Shown here: positions 4,854-18,081 of the stretch, piece after piece
Layout of the letters: each line of letters starts with the position of its first letter
Numbering within the stretch: position 1 is the first letter of the stretch
NCBI RefSeq assembly: GCF_965641715.1
Contig: NZ_OZ282453.1
Reading direction: 5' to 3' (one strand)
Length of the DNA stretch: 64,000 nucleotides
Source: Escherichia coli
Lineage (GTDB): Bacteria; Pseudomonadota; Gammaproteobacteria; Enterobacterales; Enterobacteriaceae
Made by a program: the position numbers and the translations under genes
Notes under the pieces: generated by a model
Database searches by the model: none
Seen by the model: the letters and a program-made list of their open reading frames with translations, nothing else
Told to the model about the DNA's origin: nothing

Positions 4854-6047
4854 ATGACGAAAGTGACACGCGCAGTAATTGTGGGAGGCGGGATCGGCGG
4901 TGCGGCAACTGCGCTGTCACTGGCCCGCCTGGGGATCAAAGTGGTGCTGCTGGAAAAGGCGCATGAGATCGGTGAGATTGGCGCGGGCATCCAGTTGGGG
5001 CCAAATGCGTTTTCGGCGCTGGACAGCCTCGGCGTCGGCGAAGTTGCCCGCCAGCGCGCGGTGTTTACCGATCACATTACCATGATGGATGCGGTGAACG
5101 CCGAAGAAGTGGTGTGCATTGAAACCGGGCAGGCCTTTCGTGACCATTTCGGCGGCCCTTACGCGGTGATCCACCGGGTTGATATTCACGCCTCGGTGTG
5201 GGAAGCGGTACTGACGCATCCGGACGTGGAATATCACACCTCCACCAACGTCGTGGATATTCGCGAGACGGAAGACGATGTCACCGTGTTTGACGATCGC
5301 GGCAATAGCTGGACCGGCGATATTCTGATTGGCTGTGACGGCGTGAAGTCAGTGGTGCGCCAGAGCTTATTGGGCGATGCGCCGCGTGTCACCGGACATG
5401 TTGTCTACCGTGCGGTTATCGATCGTGCCGATATGCCGGAAGATTTGCGCATTAACGCACCGGTACTGTGGGCGGGGCCGCATTGTCACTTGGTGCATTA
5501 CCCTTTGCGCGGCGGCAAGCAGTATAACCTGGTGGTAACATTCCACAGCCGCCAGCAGGAAGAGTGGGGCGTGAAGGATGGTAGTAAAGAGGAAGTGCTC
5601 TCTTACTTTGAAGGGATTCACCCCCGTCCGCGCCAGATGTTGGATAAACCGACTTCATGGCGACGCTGGTCAACCGCTGACCGTGAACCGGTGGCGAAGT
5701 GGGGAACGAAGCGCATAACGCTTGTGGGCGATTCGGCCCATCCGGTGGCGCAATATATGGCGCAGGGAGCCTGTATGGCGCTGGAAGATGCAGTAACGCT
5801 GGGTAAGGCGCTGGCGCAGTGTGAGGGTGATGCGGCGCAAGCCTTTGCGCTGTATGAGTCGGTACGAATTCCGCGCACCGCGCGCATCGTCTGGTCGACC
5901 CGTGAAATGGGGCGGGTTTACCACGCCGCAGGGGTAGAACGCCAGGTACGTAATCTGCTGTGGAAAGGGAAATCGCAGGCAGAATTTTATCGCGGCATGG
6001 AGTGGTTGTACGGCTGGAAAGAAGATAACTGTTTGCAACCACGCTGA
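4854..6047 (+). CDS. 3-hydroxybenzoate 6-hydroxylase (FAD-dependent monooxygenase)
   Basis: 397 aa; N-terminal FAD fingerprint VIVGGGIGGAATALSLARLG; DG and GD FAD motifs (GCDGVKS, LVGDSAHP). Confidence 0.85.
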   Translation: MTKVTRAVIVGGGIGGAATALSLARLGIKVVLLEKAHEIGEIGAGIQLGPNAFSALDSLGVGEVARQRAVFTDHITMMDAVNAEEVVCIETGQAFRDHFGGPYAVIHRVDIHASVWEAVLTHPDVEYHTSTNVVDIRETEDDVTVFDDRGNSWTGDILIGCDGVKSVVRQSLLGDAPRVTGHVVYRAVIDRADMPEDLRINAPVLWAGPHCHLVHYPLRGGKQYNLVVTFHSRQQEEWGVKDGSKEEVLSYFEGIHPRPRQMLDKPTSWRRWSTADREPVAKWGTKRITLVGDSAHPVAQYMAQGACMALEDAVTLGKALAQCEGDAAQAFALYESVRIPRTARIVWSTREMGRVYHAAGVERQVRNLLWKGKSQAEFYRGMEWLYGWKEDNCLQPR

Positions 6048-6157
6048 GCACTTCTTCACCCAATCAGGCGGTCCCCTCGCCCCTTCGGGAGAGGGTTAGG
6101 GTGAGGGTAAAAATCTTGCCCGAATTAATCAGTAAGTCAGTTTGTCTGCAAACACAG

Positions 6158-6186
6158 GAGGCGCTAACATAGCGCCTCATTTTTTT
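6158..6186 (+). terminator. intrinsic terminator-like hairpin (GAGGCGCTA-aca-TAGCGCCTC) followed by ATTTTTTT, 12 nt before the dusC start
   Basis: perfect 9-bp inverted repeat plus T7 run read directly from the sequence. Confidence 0.6.
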
Positions 6187-6198
6187 GCGGGTGATGAT

Positions 6199-7149
6199 AT
6201 GCGTGTGTTACTGGCACCGATGGAGGGAGTGCTTGACTCTCTGGTGCGTGAATTGCTGACCGAAGTTAACGACTACGATCTGTGCATCACCGAGTTTGTC
6301 CGCGTGGTGGATCAACTGCTGCCGGTAAAAGTCTTTCATCGCATTTGCCCTGAGTTACAAAACGCCAGCCGGACACCATCCGGTACGCTGGTGCGCGTTC
6401 AGTTGTTAGGTCAGTTCCCACAATGGCTGGCAGAGAACGCCGCCCGTGCGGTGGAATTAGGTTCCTGGGGCGTGGATCTCAATTGCGGCTGCCCGTCGAA
6501 AACGGTTAACGGTAGCGGTGGTGGGGCGACGTTACTCAAAGATCCTGAACTCATCTACCAGGGTGCAAAAGCGATGCGCGAAGCTGTACCGGCGCATTTG
6601 CCCGTCAGCGTGAAAGTGCGTCTGGGCTGGGACAGCGGTGAGAAGAAATTTGAAATCGCCGATGCGGTTCAACAGGCTGGTGCTACGGAGCTGGTGGTGC
6701 ATGGACGGACAAAAGAGCAGGGTTACCGCGCGGAGCATATTGACTGGCAGGCGATTGGCGAGATTCGCCAGCGGCTGAATATTCCGGTGATTGCCAACGG
6801 CGAAATCTGGGACTGGCAGAGCGCGCAACAATGCATTGCGATCAGCGGCTGCGACGCAGTGATGATTGGTCGCGGGGCGCTCAATATTCCCAACCTGAGC
6901 CGGGTAGTAAAATATAACGAACCGCGAATGCCGTGGCCGGAGGTGGTTGCTTTGCTGCAAAAATATACCCGTCTGGAAAAGCAGGGCGATACCGGGTTAT
7001 ATCACGTAGCGCGGATTAAACAGTGGTTGAGTTATTTGCGTAAAGAATACGATGAAGCAACGGAATTATTTCAGCATGTTCGGGTGTTGAATAATTCCCC
7101 TGATATTGCAAGGGCTATTCAGGCAATTGATATCGATAAGCTGCGATAA
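6199..7149 (+). CDS. dusC: tRNA-dihydrouridine(16) synthase DusC
   Basis: translation from [13 protein letters not shown] matches remembered DusC (315 aa); longer ORF from 6142 would place the hairpin and T-run inside the CDS. Confidence 0.93.
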
Positions 7150-7536
7150 TAGTGGAATCGCAGTTTATCAGAGACAATGAATCGCTTATTCAGCGTCATC
7201 ATCTTGTTGCGCTCCTTTCATGAGCTAAGCCACATATTGCCACTGGCGCAAGGAGCGCGCAGGGGGAGGACAATCGCCTCCTCCCCCTGCACCCCCGGGC
7301 TCTGGCGAACAAAATCGCCGCTGCGCGGTACCTTCAGCTTATCCCCTTCGGCTACCGGGTCGGGCGCGAGGAAACGTCCTTGTAAGACGCGCCCTCAGCC
7401 CACATCCATGTGGGCTGCCCCGGCCTTCGGGGAACGCTTCAGCGATTTTGACGCCACCAACACCGGAGCTGTTTGCAAATCAAGTACACAAAATATCTAG
7501 TTCCTGACCTGACAACTTATATGCCATATCTGATTT

Positions 7537-7620
7537 TTAAAATATCATCTTAAATACGCCAGTCACCACCAGTAGCCCAATCAGGAAAATAATCAATACA
7601 GCCCAGAGTATAATTTTCAT
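7537..7620 (-). CDS. yohP: small membrane protein YohP (27 aa)
   Basis: minus-strand ORF translating to MKIILWAVLIIFLIGLLVVTGVFKMIF, verified codon by codon; AGGA RBS upstream; not in the ORF track (below length cutoff). Confidence 0.7.
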   Translation of the reverse strand: MKIILWAVLIIFLIGLLVVTGVFKMIF

Positions 7621-7843
7621 TGGCGTTCCTTTATTTGTGAGTGCTGAATAAGTATAGGAAAAAACGAAGCCCTTTGCCGTTATCCATAAACGATTAAGAT
7701 AAATCGGAAGATATCATTTACTTAGTGTATATTTTTCTGGATATGTCGTTTTATTGCTACTGATGTATTGCCACGCGGAACTAAAAAATATATCGCAACA
7801 CACGGTAATCTCCGCGCACCTTTTCTTACCTGATTATTCCCCC

Positions 7844-9280
7844 ATGAATCGTGATTCCTTTTATCCAGCCATCGCCTGTTTTCCGCTGTTACTGATGCTG
7901 ACCGGGTGTGCGCCTATGCATGAAACCCGCCAGGCGTTAAGCCAGCAAACGCCCGCTGCACAAGTTGACACCGCATTACCCACGGCGCTGAAAAATGGTT
8001 GGCCAGACAGCCAATGGTGGCTGGAGTATCACGATAATCAACTCACTTCATTAATTAACAATGCACTACAGAACGCACCGGATATGCAGGTGGCTGAACA
8101 GCGCATTCAGCTAGCTGAAGCCCAGGCGAAGGCAATTGCCACTCAGGATGGTCCGCAGATCGACTTTTCTGCGGATATGGAGCGGCAAAAAATGTCGGCA
8201 GAAGGGCTAATGGGGCCGTTTGCTCTGAACGATCCGGCCGCAGGTACGACCGGTCCGTGGTACACCAACGGAACTTTTGGCTTAACGGCGGGCTGGCATC
8301 TCGATATCTGGGGAAAGAATCGGGCGGAGGTTACTGCCCGCCTGGGTACGGTTAAAGCACGGGCGGCGGAACGCGAGCAAACCCGCCAATTGCTGGCTGG
8401 CAGCGTAGCCCGCCTGTACTGGGAGTGGCAAACCCAGGCGGCGTTAAACACGGTCTTGCAGCAAATCGAAAAAGAGCAGAACACCATTATCGCGACCGAT
8501 CGCCAGCTATATCAGAACGGGATTACTTCTTCAGTTGAAGGTGTGGAAACCGATATTAATGCCAGCAAAACCCGGCAGCAGCTCAACGATGTCGCGGGGA
8601 AAATGAAAATTATTGAGGCACGGTTAAGCGCACTTACAAATCACCAGACAAAGTCATTGAAGCTTAAACCGGTCGCGTTGCCGAAAGTGGCAAGCCAGCT
8701 TCCTGATGAACTGGGGTACTCCTTACTGGCCCGGCGGGCAGATTTGCAGGCGGCGCACTGGTACGTTGAGTCATCGCTAAGCACCATTGATGCGGCAAAA
8801 GCGGCATTTTATCCTGACATCAACCTGATGGCCTTCCTGCAACAGGATGCGTTGCACTTAAGCGATCTGTTCCGTCATTCCGCGCAGCAAATGGGCGTTA
8901 CGGCAGGCCTGACGCTACCCATTTTCGATAGTGGTCGTCTTAACGCCAATCTCGATATCGCAAAAGCCGAAAGCAACTTGTCTATCGCCAGCTACAACAA
9001 AGCGGTGGTTGAAGCGGTGAATGACGTGGCGCGGGCAGCCAGTCAGGTTCAGACACTGGCGGAGAAAAACCAGCATCAGGCGCAAATTGAGCGCGATGCC
9101 TTGCGTGTGGTAGGTCTTGCGCAGGCCCGCTTTAACGCGGGCATCATTGCTGGTTCCCGCGTCAGCGAAGCCAGAATCCCCGCGCTGCGTGAGCGGGCCA
9201 ATGGCCTGTTATTGCAAGGGCAGTGGCTGGATGCCTCCATTCAACTCACTGGTGCGTTGGGCGGGGGTTACAAACGCTGA
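7844..9280 (+). CDS. mdtQ: outer-membrane efflux lipoprotein (OMF/NodT family), uninterrupted
   Basis: 478 aa; lipoprotein signal with lipobox LTGC; OMF coiled-coil repeats; single open frame. Confidence 0.85.
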   Translation: MNRDSFYPAIACFPLLLMLTGCAPMHETRQALSQQTPAAQVDTALPTALKNGWPDSQWWLEYHDNQLTSLINNALQNAPDMQVAEQRIQLAEAQAKAIATQDGPQIDFSADMERQKMSAEGLMGPFALNDPAAGTTGPWYTNGTFGLTAGWHLDIWGKNRAEVTARLGTVKARAAEREQTRQLLAGSVARLYWEWQTQAALNTVLQQIEKEQNTIIATDRQLYQNGITSSVEGVETDINASKTRQQLNDVAGKMKIIEARLSALTNHQTKSLKLKPVALPKVASQLPDELGYSLLARRADLQAAHWYVESSLSTIDAAKAAFYPDINLMAFLQQDALHLSDLFRHSAQQMGVTAGLTLPIFDSGRLNANLDIAKAESNLSIASYNKAVVEAVNDVARAASQVQTLAEKNQHQAQIERDALRVVGLAQARFNAGIIAGSRVSEARIPALRERANGLLLQGQWLDASIQLTGALGGGYKR

Positions 9281-17163: not shown

Positions 17164-18081
17164 ATGCCACTCTCAAAGGTCTGGGCAGGTTCACTGGTTT
17201 TGTTGGCAGCCGTGAGCCTGCCGCTGCACGCGGCTTCCCCCGTTAAAGTCGGTTCAAAAATCGATACCGAAGGCGCGCTGCTCGGCAATATCATTTTGCA
17301 AGTACTCGAAAGCCACGGAGTACCAACGGTCAATAAAGTGCAACTTGGAACGACTCCTGTGGTGCGCGGGGCGATTACTTCCGGTGAACTGGATATCTAT
17401 CCGGAATATACCGGCAATGGCGCGTTTTTCTTTAAAGATGAAAACGATGCAGCGTGGAAAAACGCGCAGCAAGGTTACGAGAAAGTCAAAAAACTCGATG
17501 CAGAGCAAAACAAGTTAATCTGGCTGACGCCCGCACCTGCAAATAACACCTGGACCATCGCCGTGCGTCAGGATGTGGCAGAGAAAAACAAACTCACTTC
17601 GCTTGCTGACCTGAGTCGTTATCTGAAAGAGGGCGGCACCTTCAAACTGGCAGCCTCGGCAGAGTTTATCGAACGCGCCGATGCCTTACCCGCGTTTGAA
17701 AAAGCCTACGACTTTAAACTCGATCAGGATCAGTTACTGTCACTGGCTGGCGGCGACACGGCGGTAACGATTAAAGCCGCTGCCCAACAAACTTCTGGCG
17801 TTAATGCCGCAATGGCTTACGGCACTGACGGTCCGGTCGCGGCGCTGGGGCTGCAAACCTTAAGCGATCCGCAAGGCGTGCAACCTATCTACGCGCCTGC
17901 ACCAGTGGTGCGTGAATCGGTGTTGAAGGAGTATCCGCAAATGGCACAGTGGCTACAGCCAGTCTTCGCCAGCCTCGATGAAAAAACATTGCAGCAACTG
18001 AATGCCAGCATTGCAGTGGAAGGACTGGATGCCAAAAAAGTGGCTGCCGACTACCTGAAACAAAAAGGGTGGACGAAGTAA
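17164..18081 (+). CDS. osmF: periplasmic osmoprotectant-binding protein
   Basis: 305 aa with signal peptide; first gene of a four-gene ABC transporter operon. Confidence 0.9.
   Translation: MPLSKVWAGSLVLLAAVSLPLHAASPVKVGSKIDTEGALLGNIILQVLESHGVPTVNKVQLGTTPVVRGAITSGELDIYPEYTGNGAFFFKDENDAAWKNAQQGYEKVKKLDAEQNKLIWLTPAPANNTWTIAVRQDVAEKNKLTSLADLSRYLKEGGTFKLAASAEFIERADALPAFEKAYDFKLDQDQLLSLAGGDTAVTIKAAAQQTSGVNAAMAYGTDGPVAALGLQTLSDPQGVQPIYAPAPVVRESVLKEYPQMAQWLQPVFASLDEKTLQQLNASIAVEGLDAKKVAADYLKQKGWTK

Follow-up and report, generated by a model that had tools for sequence, protein, structure and literature searches.

The GC-rich block described here lies downstream of dusC in a 64,000-nucleotide stretch of the Escherichia coli contig NZ_OZ282453.1 (assembly GCF_965641715.1; the whole stretch is referred to as the window). 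It is, with near certainty, TRIP1c, one copy of the dispersed repeat TRIP1. This identity is already known, as TRIP1 has carried its name since 1999. Comparison of the copies gives good support to the view that selection maintains, throughout the family, a specific multi-helix fold on one of the two strands. New with respect to the published work on TRIP1 are the relatives outside E. coli, the covariation, the strand assignment and the resemblance to TwoAYGGAY and to CsrA-binding motifs. The best joint account would be a non-coding, strand-specifically folded element with a TwoAYGGAY-like core and two CsrA-type loops, and to this combination as a whole we assign about even chances.

Identity of the GC-rich block

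The initial annotation, made from the letters of the window alone, had described a GC-rich block between AT-rich flanks. The composition agrees with this description (63–66% against 32–41% G+C): in 100-nt windows the G+C fraction is 0.63–0.66 across 7200–7449, 0.40–0.41 at the dusC end (7000–7199) and 0.32–0.39 in the windows of 7450–7799. A megablast search with 7150–7500 as query found TRIP1 in 5425 of 5426 complete E. coli genomes, at 17,478 places in total, with a median of 3 and a maximum of 8 per genome. Similarity to the repeat begins at 7196, 46 nt past the dusC stop codon (7149), and yohP and mdtQ come next. The segment 7196–7498 (query 47–349) is 88–91% identical to TRIP1a of K-12-type genomes at the aqpZ/lysO locus, with 90.8–91.1% over 303 bp in K-12-type strains; identity to the flipped TRIP1c of K-12 is 89.3% over 262 bp. 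Assignment to TRIP1 is consistent with the high identity to TRIP1a and TRIP1c, which are ~265–273 bp long as a criterion of the family, the published locus and a G+C content of 62–65% combined with a stable fold.

TRIP1 was named by Rudd 1999 (per Li et al. 2024, PMC10888264). Li et al. surveyed five copies, namely TRIP1a (aqpZ/ybjE), TRIP1b (putP/ycdN), TRIP1c (yohI (dusC)/yohG (mdtQ)), TRIP1d (alx/sstT) and TRIP1e (copA/ybaP). They place TRIP1c 43–44 bp downstream of the yohI (dusC) stop codon, give a G+C content of 62–65% and a predicted 'double-Y' RNA fold, report both orientations at the TRIP1a and TRIP1c loci, and state the function as unknown (PMC10888264). According to the same work, the copies serve as DNA substrates for homologous recombination and large inversions, mostly TRIP1a x TRIP1c, and inversions between these two make up 137 of 156 rearrangement events. 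Our literature search found no further paper that mentions TRIP1 beyond Li et al. 2024 and Rudd 1999. The window copy agrees with published TRIP1 in sequence, locus, length class and G+C content, and nothing in it differs in kind; its orientation is opposite to that in K-12.

As one option, the initial annotation had proposed a cluster of degenerate intergenic repeat units. Membership in a repeat family, which a BLASTN search was to check, is established by the matches in 5425 of the 5426 E. coli genomes. The cluster has to be given up, since the block is one intact unit of ~280–300 bp from a single named family rather than a group of short units.

Judged from the comparison of copies, TRIP1c encodes no protein. 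A small protein gene could only correspond to the open reading frame (ORF) 7177–7500 on the plus strand, which has an ATG start and runs uninterrupted for 107 aa. This ORF had already been dismissed as a credible protein on the first reading, rightly so: it is without a Pfam match at E<=1, and stop codons interrupt its frame in TRIP1a of K-12, in the copy of Escherichia sp. E1V33 (98% identical) and in the Citrobacter copies. Moreover, the subfamilies are separated by single-base indels, and high G+C alone gives long open frames. The probability of such a gene is negligible. A second coding signal was seen at the 3' end of the inferred RNA strand (7197–7228, minus), where the E. coli copies carry AAAGGAGCGCAACAAGAUGAUGA, a Shine-Dalgarno-like AAAGGAG followed by AUGAUG. 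It was rejected as a gene because three copies give ORFs of just 27, 8 and 3 codons and because Klebsiella and Citrobacter lack the feature.

Covariation and the conserved fold

Thirty-seven distinct copies from Escherichia, Klebsiella, Citrobacter and Enterobacter were aligned in the sense of the window minus strand (alignment A6). RNAalifold predicted 61 pairs, 25 of them compensatory, and adjustment of one helix register by hand led to the 62-pair structure used here. In this structure 97.2% of the cells are paired, compared with 36.6–44.7% in slid controls in which each pairing partner was shifted by 1–3 columns. Both sides change in 28 pairs (5–7 in the controls), and the covariation score is 0.361 (0.047–0.078 in the controls). 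A covariation analysis of homologous regions, suggested at the outset as a check, has thus come out positive, with 28 compensatory pairs at 97.2% pairing and conservation in four genera. The minus strand of the core (7203–7464) folds with -137.5 kcal/mol, whereas the mean of 200 shuffled sequences is -109.1 kcal/mol (z = -6.07, no shuffle as good); the plus strand reaches -122.0 kcal/mol (z = -5.57).

All three perfect palindromes of the initial annotation are present at their positions. The first consists of GCAGGGGGAGGA (7259–7270) and TCCTCCCCCTGC (7279–7290), two arms of 12 nt that are 100% complementary, lie 8 nt apart and contain the 7261–7288 repeat noted before. The second pairs CAGCCCACAT (7396–7405) with ATGTGGGCTG (7408–7417) over 10 nt, likewise with 100% complementarity, and the third is CCCCGGCCTTCGGGG at 7418–7432. 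As a local hairpin the third palindrome is not conserved: only 73.5% of the cells pair across the 37 relatives, most members cannot form two of the five pairs, and its bases join long-range helices in the conserved fold.

The conserved helices vary in sequence while pairing is maintained (Table 1). The stem of the first palindrome occurs as GGGGGAGGA/UCCUCCCCC, GGGGGCGGC/GCCGCCCCC, UAAAGGGCG/CGCCCUUUA and UUAAGGGUA/UACCCUUAA; between the window and K-12 this long hairpin differs by two double changes (GAGGA/UCCUC vs GCGGC/GCCGC). That of the second palindrome is found as CAGCCCA/UGGGCUG, GAGCCAG/CUGGCUC and CGACGCG/CGCGGCG, and the small hairpin as CCGC/GCGG, UUGC/GCAA, CCAC/GUGG and UCGC/GCGA. 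The helix of the 3' domain is GCGCUCC/GGAGCGC or CGUUCAC/GUGAACG, and a helix that spans 140 nt alternates between AAAAUCG/CGAUUUU and AAAAUUG/CAAUUUU. The closing stem of the TwoAYGGAY-like domain contains 29 pairs in five helices (columns 26–57 with 118–167), to which the window copy adds a 5-bp outer helix UGGCG/CGCCA. Within this stem the facing G-A/G-A columns 36–37 and 142–143 are invariant in 37 of 37 members. The loop of hairpin 2 is closed by the pairs 94:103 (GC in 22, AU in 15 members) and 95:102.

These data bear on a further explanation of the repeat, namely functionless DNA that is kept solely by gene conversion and whose sole consequence is recombination between copies. The documented TRIP1a x TRIP1c inversions (137/156 events, PMC10888264) fit such a scenario, and template switching during replication can maintain palindromes. 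Neither accounts for 28 pairs that are compensatory between genera at 97% pairing, nor for loops conserved across 40 distinct cores; covarying long-range helices are impossible via hairpin template switching. Because of the covariation, we consider functionless DNA very improbable.

Strand of the fold

All 37 members have their lower minimum free energy in the minus-strand sense (mean -125.2 kcal/mol, against -114.7 kcal/mol in the opposite sense). G.U cells (31 in 13 pairs) outnumber A.C cells (10 in 5 pairs). On the opposite strand the invariant facing G-A dinucleotides would be pyrimidine mismatches, and the G-N-A triloop of the small hairpin exists in the minus-strand sense. This evidence is consistent but modest, and it points to the window minus strand, which is the yohP strand, as the folded one. 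It is likely that folded TRIP1 is an RNA. The structured RNA which the initial annotation had offered as its other option thereby gains indirect support, from the strong covariation across four genera and a modest, consistent strand asymmetry.

CsrA-type loops

The two hairpins enclosed by the long stem carry loops of the sequence CA-N-GGA-Y-G. For a survey of these loops, metagenome copies were retrieved by a pattern outside both hairpins, so that the loop itself was not a criterion. Both anchors were present in 94 copies, and all but one of these (93) form the two hairpins. The loop sequence holds across 40 distinct cores while the stems differ widely; N is U, G or C in hairpin 1, whose loop reads CA(U/G/C)GGA(U/C)G, and any of the four bases in hairpin 2. 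In the window the loops are ACAUGGAUGU (7401–7412) and ACAAGGACGU (7374–7383), with the GGA triplets 29 nt apart. Mercante et al. 2009 reportedly found that one CsrA dimer can bridge such a spacing between two sites.

Both loops match the optimum for RsmE/CsrA, A/U-CANGGANG-U/A (PMC6849547), with GGA in the hairpin loop. They also fit the CsrA consensus RUACARGGAUGU obtained by systematic evolution of ligands by exponential enrichment (SELEX), in which GGA likewise lies in a hairpin loop (PMC4347634); hairpin 2 of K-12 TRIP1 is UUACAGGGAUGU. A search of the yohP literature and of the literature on crosslinking and immunoprecipitation sequencing (CLIP-seq) of CsrA found nothing on the repeat. 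Binding of CsrA by TRIP1 would have roughly one chance in three.

Resemblance to TwoAYGGAY

A permissive Rfam scan (cmscan) of 6900–7900 found TwoAYGGAY (RF01731) at 7312–7451 on the minus strand with 25.9 bits (E 0.17), which is below the gathering score of 43 bits. The same family is the sole Rfam match to recur and the top one, at equal strand and position, in six diverged TRIP1 copies (25.9–36.6 bits; the relatives score 28.9, 30.6, 30.9, 33.1 and 36.6 bits). Matches to miRNA, snoRNA and rydB families in the scanned interval, all sub-threshold, were discarded as chance.

TwoAYGGAY was found in human gut metagenomes, Clostridia and gamma-proteobacteria and has two AYGGAY terminal loops closed by an often very long helix P1 (Weinberg et al. 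2010). Its stem contains two tandem G-A motifs, and it is a predicted CsrA binder (PMC4333381). Its gamma-proteobacterial seed sequences are many dispersed copies in Psychromonas ingrahamii with the loops ACAUGGAUGU and ACAGGGACGU. In TRIP1, hairpin 1 has AUGGAU and fits AYGGAY. Hairpin 2 has AAGGAC in the window and AGGGAU, ACGGAC or AUGGAC in relatives, i.e. its second position is free and not restricted to Y; some Psychromonas seed members also show AGGGAC. A long closing P1 stem with tandem G-A is present in TRIP1 as well. Since the 154-nt domain of TRIP1 (7456 to 7303) shares the plan of TwoAYGGAY, it may also work like a TwoAYGGAY element. By the Rfam criterion TRIP1 is not a member of the family; it resembles it, and the likeness may be due to common descent or to convergence on one protein-binding design.

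Proposed mechanism

In the account that we favor, the folded molecule would be an RNA read from the window minus strand. No terminator-like site turned up in the interval that separates yohP from TRIP1c, which lies directly 3' of yohP on the strand of the inferred RNA. Therefore, transcription, if any, would presumably occur as a 3' extension of the yohP transcript. In the conserved fold, a long stem with two invariant G-A/G-A mismatches makes up the 5' two-thirds and opens into two adjacent hairpins; the long hairpin and a further helix come after it. The two loops could form a paired site for one CsrA dimer, which is the least secure step. Each copy might then recruit CsrA to its host transcript or retain a little of the protein. 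As a copy has just two sites, TRIP1 is not expected to be a sponge like CsrB.

A more specific and tentative version, which we hold to be somewhat improbable, would make TRIP1 the enterobacterial branch of TwoAYGGAY and a dispersed, portable two-site docking platform for CsrA, ready for any transcript into which it inserts. Flips in place would then switch which of the two convergent genes carries the platform, which would be yohP in ~37% of E. coli genomes and dusC in most of the rest.

Several observations weigh against the favored account. The strand signal alone fits single-stranded DNA too, in which G.T and sheared G.A pairs are tolerated. Many compensatory changes fall between subfamilies at the genus level, and the cell counts therefore overstate how many events were independent. 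No TRIP1 copy reaches the RF01731 gathering score of 43 bits. Consensus searches of the window copy, K-12 TRIP1a and one Citrobacter copy revealed neither a sigma-70-like promoter nor an intrinsic terminator; a -35/-10-like pair spotted by hand in Citrobacter flanks was discarded, as the promoter scanner did not call it. In co-directional spacers 7 sites are sense and 11 antisense, and without an excess of sense copies a function that needs co-transcription with the upstream gene is not favored. TRIP1b, present in about half of the genomes, has lost both hairpins through deletion, from which it follows that individual copies are dispensable. Finally, for CsrA CLIP-seq in K-12 (Potts et al. 2017), the supplementary tables, whose available text gives no peak coordinates, flag no peak for dusC, ybjE or efeU. 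This negative is weak, since these genes are the neighbors and not the repeat itself, and the processing may have dropped repeat-derived reads.

The break in K-12 TRIP1b (locus L004, ~880–1000) joins GGCCGGG to CAGCAGGGGG at short repeats (CGGGG..CAG). With this deletion the two GGA hairpins are gone, and so is the long stem's 3' half.

TRIP1 and TwoAYGGAY are both functional orphans, and their comparison gives a hypothesis that is cheap to test: a defined 154-nt RNA (7456 to 7303, minus strand) with two CsrA-consensus loops is at hand, and the two orientation alleles, similar in frequency in E. coli, constitute a natural experiment. Should CsrA bind, mobile repeats would offer genes a way into or out of the Csr regulon, and the 1.3-Mb TRIP1a x TRIP1c inversions would reshuffle regulatory modules as well. 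Should it not bind, the invariant loops indicate a different partner.

Distribution, orientation and spread

The arrangement of the window at dusC/yohP occurs in 1998 of 5426 E. coli genomes (~37%). Nearly all other genomes sampled match the flanks alone over a similar span, like K-12, which holds the element in the same spacer in opposite orientation. An empty dusC/yohP site was not found in a spread sample of 40 genomes. The orientation alleles differ beside the repeat and in the last dusC codons (window 7129–7149), which encode …DIDKLR* here and …DIEKL* in K-12; consequently, the variable cassette reaches into the gene. At aqpZ/lysO, strain E69 carries a flipped TRIP1a whose private flanks are unrelated to K-12 and which replaces the aqpZ terminator hairpin. 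Such unrelated private flanks rule out a clean inversion or insertion for the flipped alleles at both loci.

A sensitive blastn search of a plasmid collection that includes megabase-sized records detected a ~220-bp core with 76–85% identity in Klebsiella pneumoniae, K. aerogenes, K. variicola and Citrobacter freundii, with 14 places in a single 5.4-Mb record of K. pneumoniae. All these matches are on records typed as non-mobilizable, the megabase-sized ones included. Klebsiella and Citrobacter copies occupy non-orthologous loci (pcaC, dmlA/caiT, torD/yeiP). Scanning species-representative genomes with the pattern CATCCATG-N8-CCCGGCCTT added C. werkmanii, C. youngae, C. amalonaticus, Enterobacter asburiae and an Enterobacter metagenome-assembled genome (MAG). 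Pattern matches outside Enterobacteriaceae (Mesorhizobium, Lachnospiraceae and others) were rejected, as they show no likeness to TRIP1 beyond the pattern; 16 sampled non-enterobacterial matches lie in unrelated coding-like sequence, and none of 12 non-enterobacterial loci contains TwoAYGGAY at its gathering score. Viral contigs gave 0 TRIP1 matches.

Metagenomes provided 62 distinct sites. Among the 43 with both neighbors known, 22 lie between convergent, 18 between co-directional and 3 between divergent genes. This distribution suggests that the element is tolerated near the 3' ends of genes, and not that co-transcription is selected for. It would also be expected of a REP-like RNA structure at 3' ends, whose stable fold blocks 3' exonucleases or helps to end transcription and whose GGA loops have no role in CsrA binding. 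The very stable fold (-137.5 kcal/mol), the bias of the sites (22 of 43 convergent, only 3 divergent), the replacement of the aqpZ terminator hairpin by the flipped TRIP1a of E. coli E69 and the lack of a terminator-like site between yohP and the repeat in the window all suit this explanation. Stability fails, however, to explain the invariant CA-N-GGA-Y-G loops on top of freely covarying stems and the invariant G-A columns, and in co-directional spacers antisense copies are as common as sense copies. We therefore regard a purely stabilizing or terminating role as unlikely.

Several copies occur close together. Tandem TRIP1-like arrays comprise three copies with a period of ~654 bp (locus L138, 1964–3297) and two copies 340 bp apart (L145, 544–910). 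A Klebsiella pair lies 437 bp apart with REP-like sequence after each copy (L006, 2023–2720), and one metagenome contig holds an inverted pair (L159, 2127–2546). In K-12 the alx-sstT spacer (L130, 3046–3445) contains a Box C-like repeat where others carry TRIP1d (L129, 1553–2169), and only the outer flanks are common; the spacer behaves as a hot spot for alternative repeats. In the Enterobacter MAG (L018, 389–647 and 750–949) a TRIP1-like copy lies ~100 bp from a phage-type immunity region, which contains C4 antisense RNA at 55.3 bits, above its gathering score, with isrK and c4-a1b1 just below theirs.

The mode of spread raises the question whether TRIP1 is selfish, non-autonomous mobile DNA. 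Its hairpins, in single-stranded DNA, would then be the targets of a transposase or recombinase whose gene lies elsewhere, comparable to the recognition of REP by RAYT or of IS200/IS605 ends by TnpA, and the RNA would be incidental. In accordance with this, copies occupy non-orthologous intergenic sites in four genera, lie in either orientation at one locus (dusC/yohP, aqpZ/lysO), form tandem arrays (L006, L138, L145) and decay (TRIP1b). Gene 3' ends have an excess of sites and spacers between divergent genes a deficit, with no preference for the sense orientation, and the spacers hold other repeats in other strains (Box C-like in K-12 alx/sstT). The boundaries tell against it: the inverted repeats of the window include no terminal inverted repeat, and no target-site duplication was found at the boundaries of five E. 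coli copies or between filled and alternative alleles. With neither feature found, TRIP1 was also rejected as a transposon of the miniature inverted-repeat type. The flipped alleles are neither clean insertions nor clean inversions, no copy was found on viral contigs, and the matches in the plasmid collection are all typed non-mobilizable. Clustering of 554 flanking ORFs for a partner gene gave only orthologous neighbors (dusC, yohF, mdtQ, lysO, aqpZ), i.e. no protein family recurs beside copies across the examined loci. In addition, multiple branches, long-range helices over 140 nt and an invariant tandem G-A are more usual in RNA than in the DNA hairpins that transposases are known to recognize. 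On balance, we consider mobile DNA with an incidental RNA rather unlikely.

Neighboring genes and features

The genes dusC and yohP are convergent, with mdtQ and yohF beyond yohP. The hairpin that spans the dusC stop codon is restricted to the orientation allele of the window, as the K-12 allele differs in sequence here, including the last dusC codons. Directly upstream of dusC an ORF of 397 aa (4854–6047, +) has an N-terminus of the flavin adenine dinucleotide-binding type (VIVGGGIGG) and was read as a monooxygenase. Between this ORF and dusC lies a Box C-like repeat (6066–6108, GGTCCCCTCGCCCCTTCGGGAGAGGGTTAGGGTGAGGGT), followed shortly before the dusC start by a terminator-like hairpin with a T-run (6155–6190, GAGGCGCTAACATAGCGCCTCATTTTTTT). 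In strain FCI1, whose TRIP1c is 100% identical, the divergent yohJ-yohK precede dusC instead; judging from this comparison, the strain of the window seems to carry extra DNA between yohJ and dusC.

Table 1. Coordinates of TRIP1c, its predicted structural elements and neighboring features in the window.
Feature	Position	Strand	Basis or description
TRIP1c repeat unit	7196..7498	.	limits set by similarity to other TRIP1 copies
Core conserved across Escherichia, Klebsiella, Citrobacter, Enterobacter	7203..7464	- (inferred folded strand)	alignment A6
TwoAYGGAY-like domain	7303..7456	-	closing stem UGGCG..CAAAAUCG / CGAUUUUG..CGCCA, tandem G-A internal loops, two GGA hairpins enclosed
Hairpin 1	7396..7417	-	CAGCCCA-CAUGGAUG-UGGGCUG, CsrA-type loop; 6/9 pairs compensatory
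Hairpin 2	7362..7394	-	GGGCGCG / CGCGCCC stem, internal loop, apical ACAAGGACGU
Small hairpin CCGC-GCA-GCGG, G-N-A triloop	7318..7328	-	3/4 pairs compensatory
Long hairpin (first palindrome), loop GGCGAUUG	7258..7291	-	12-nt perfect inverted repeat; 6/8 pairs compensatory
3' domain, helix CGCUCCU / AGGAGCG around ~36-nt variable stretch	7210..7257	-	3/7 pairs compensatory
dusC, tRNA dihydrouridine(16) synthase	6199..7149	+	ORF and annotation
Hairpin spanning dusC stop codon (GATAAGCUGCGAU / AUCGCAGUUUAUC)	7135..7169	+	inverted repeat, 13 nt, 92% complementary
yohP, 27-aa membrane protein	7539..7622	-	RefSeq annotation of 99.9–100% identical locus, strain FCI1

Comparison with known systems

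TRIP1 shares with REP/BIME, ERIC and Box C elements a GC-rich, structured sequence, an intergenic position (mostly at the 3' ends of genes), the occurrence in both orientations and the variation between strains. Spacers are shared as well: REP-like sequence borders the Klebsiella copies, and in K-12 the place of TRIP1d is taken by a Box C-like element. In contrast to these families, TRIP1 has a low copy number, with 1–10 matching places per E. coli genome, and no known mobilizing enzyme, and there is no sequence similarity to them. It is far longer than REP or Box C and multi-branched rather than a single palindrome.

The small RNAs CsrB, CsrC and RsmZ resemble TRIP1 in presenting GGA in hairpin loops that match CANGGANG, and Rfam groups RF01731 in clan CL00106 with PrrB/RsmZ. 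They contain many sites, whereas TRIP1 has two per copy, and each is of the single regulated gene type, whereas TRIP1 is a dispersed repeat in variable contexts. On the relevant strand of TRIP1 no promoter or terminator of the CsrB type was found. A sponge of the CsrB/CsrC type was rejected for TRIP1 because of the two loop sites per copy and because no promoter- or terminator-like site was found.

The likeness to TwoAYGGAY comprises the architecture of the core. Some features separate the two: TRIP1 is GC-rich while the TwoAYGGAY consensus is AT-rich, the second loop of TRIP1 has A or G where the name TwoAYGGAY demands Y, and two parts are peculiar to TRIP1, an additional ~100 nt on the 3' side (long hairpin and helix) and, within the closing stem, the G-N-A hairpin. 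Common to both are two adjacent A-N-GGA-Y hairpins (ACAUGGAUGU, ACAGGGACGU), a short helix and a long stem with tandem G-A, and both TRIP1 and the TwoAYGGAY of Psychromonas are present in multiple copies dispersed in the genome.

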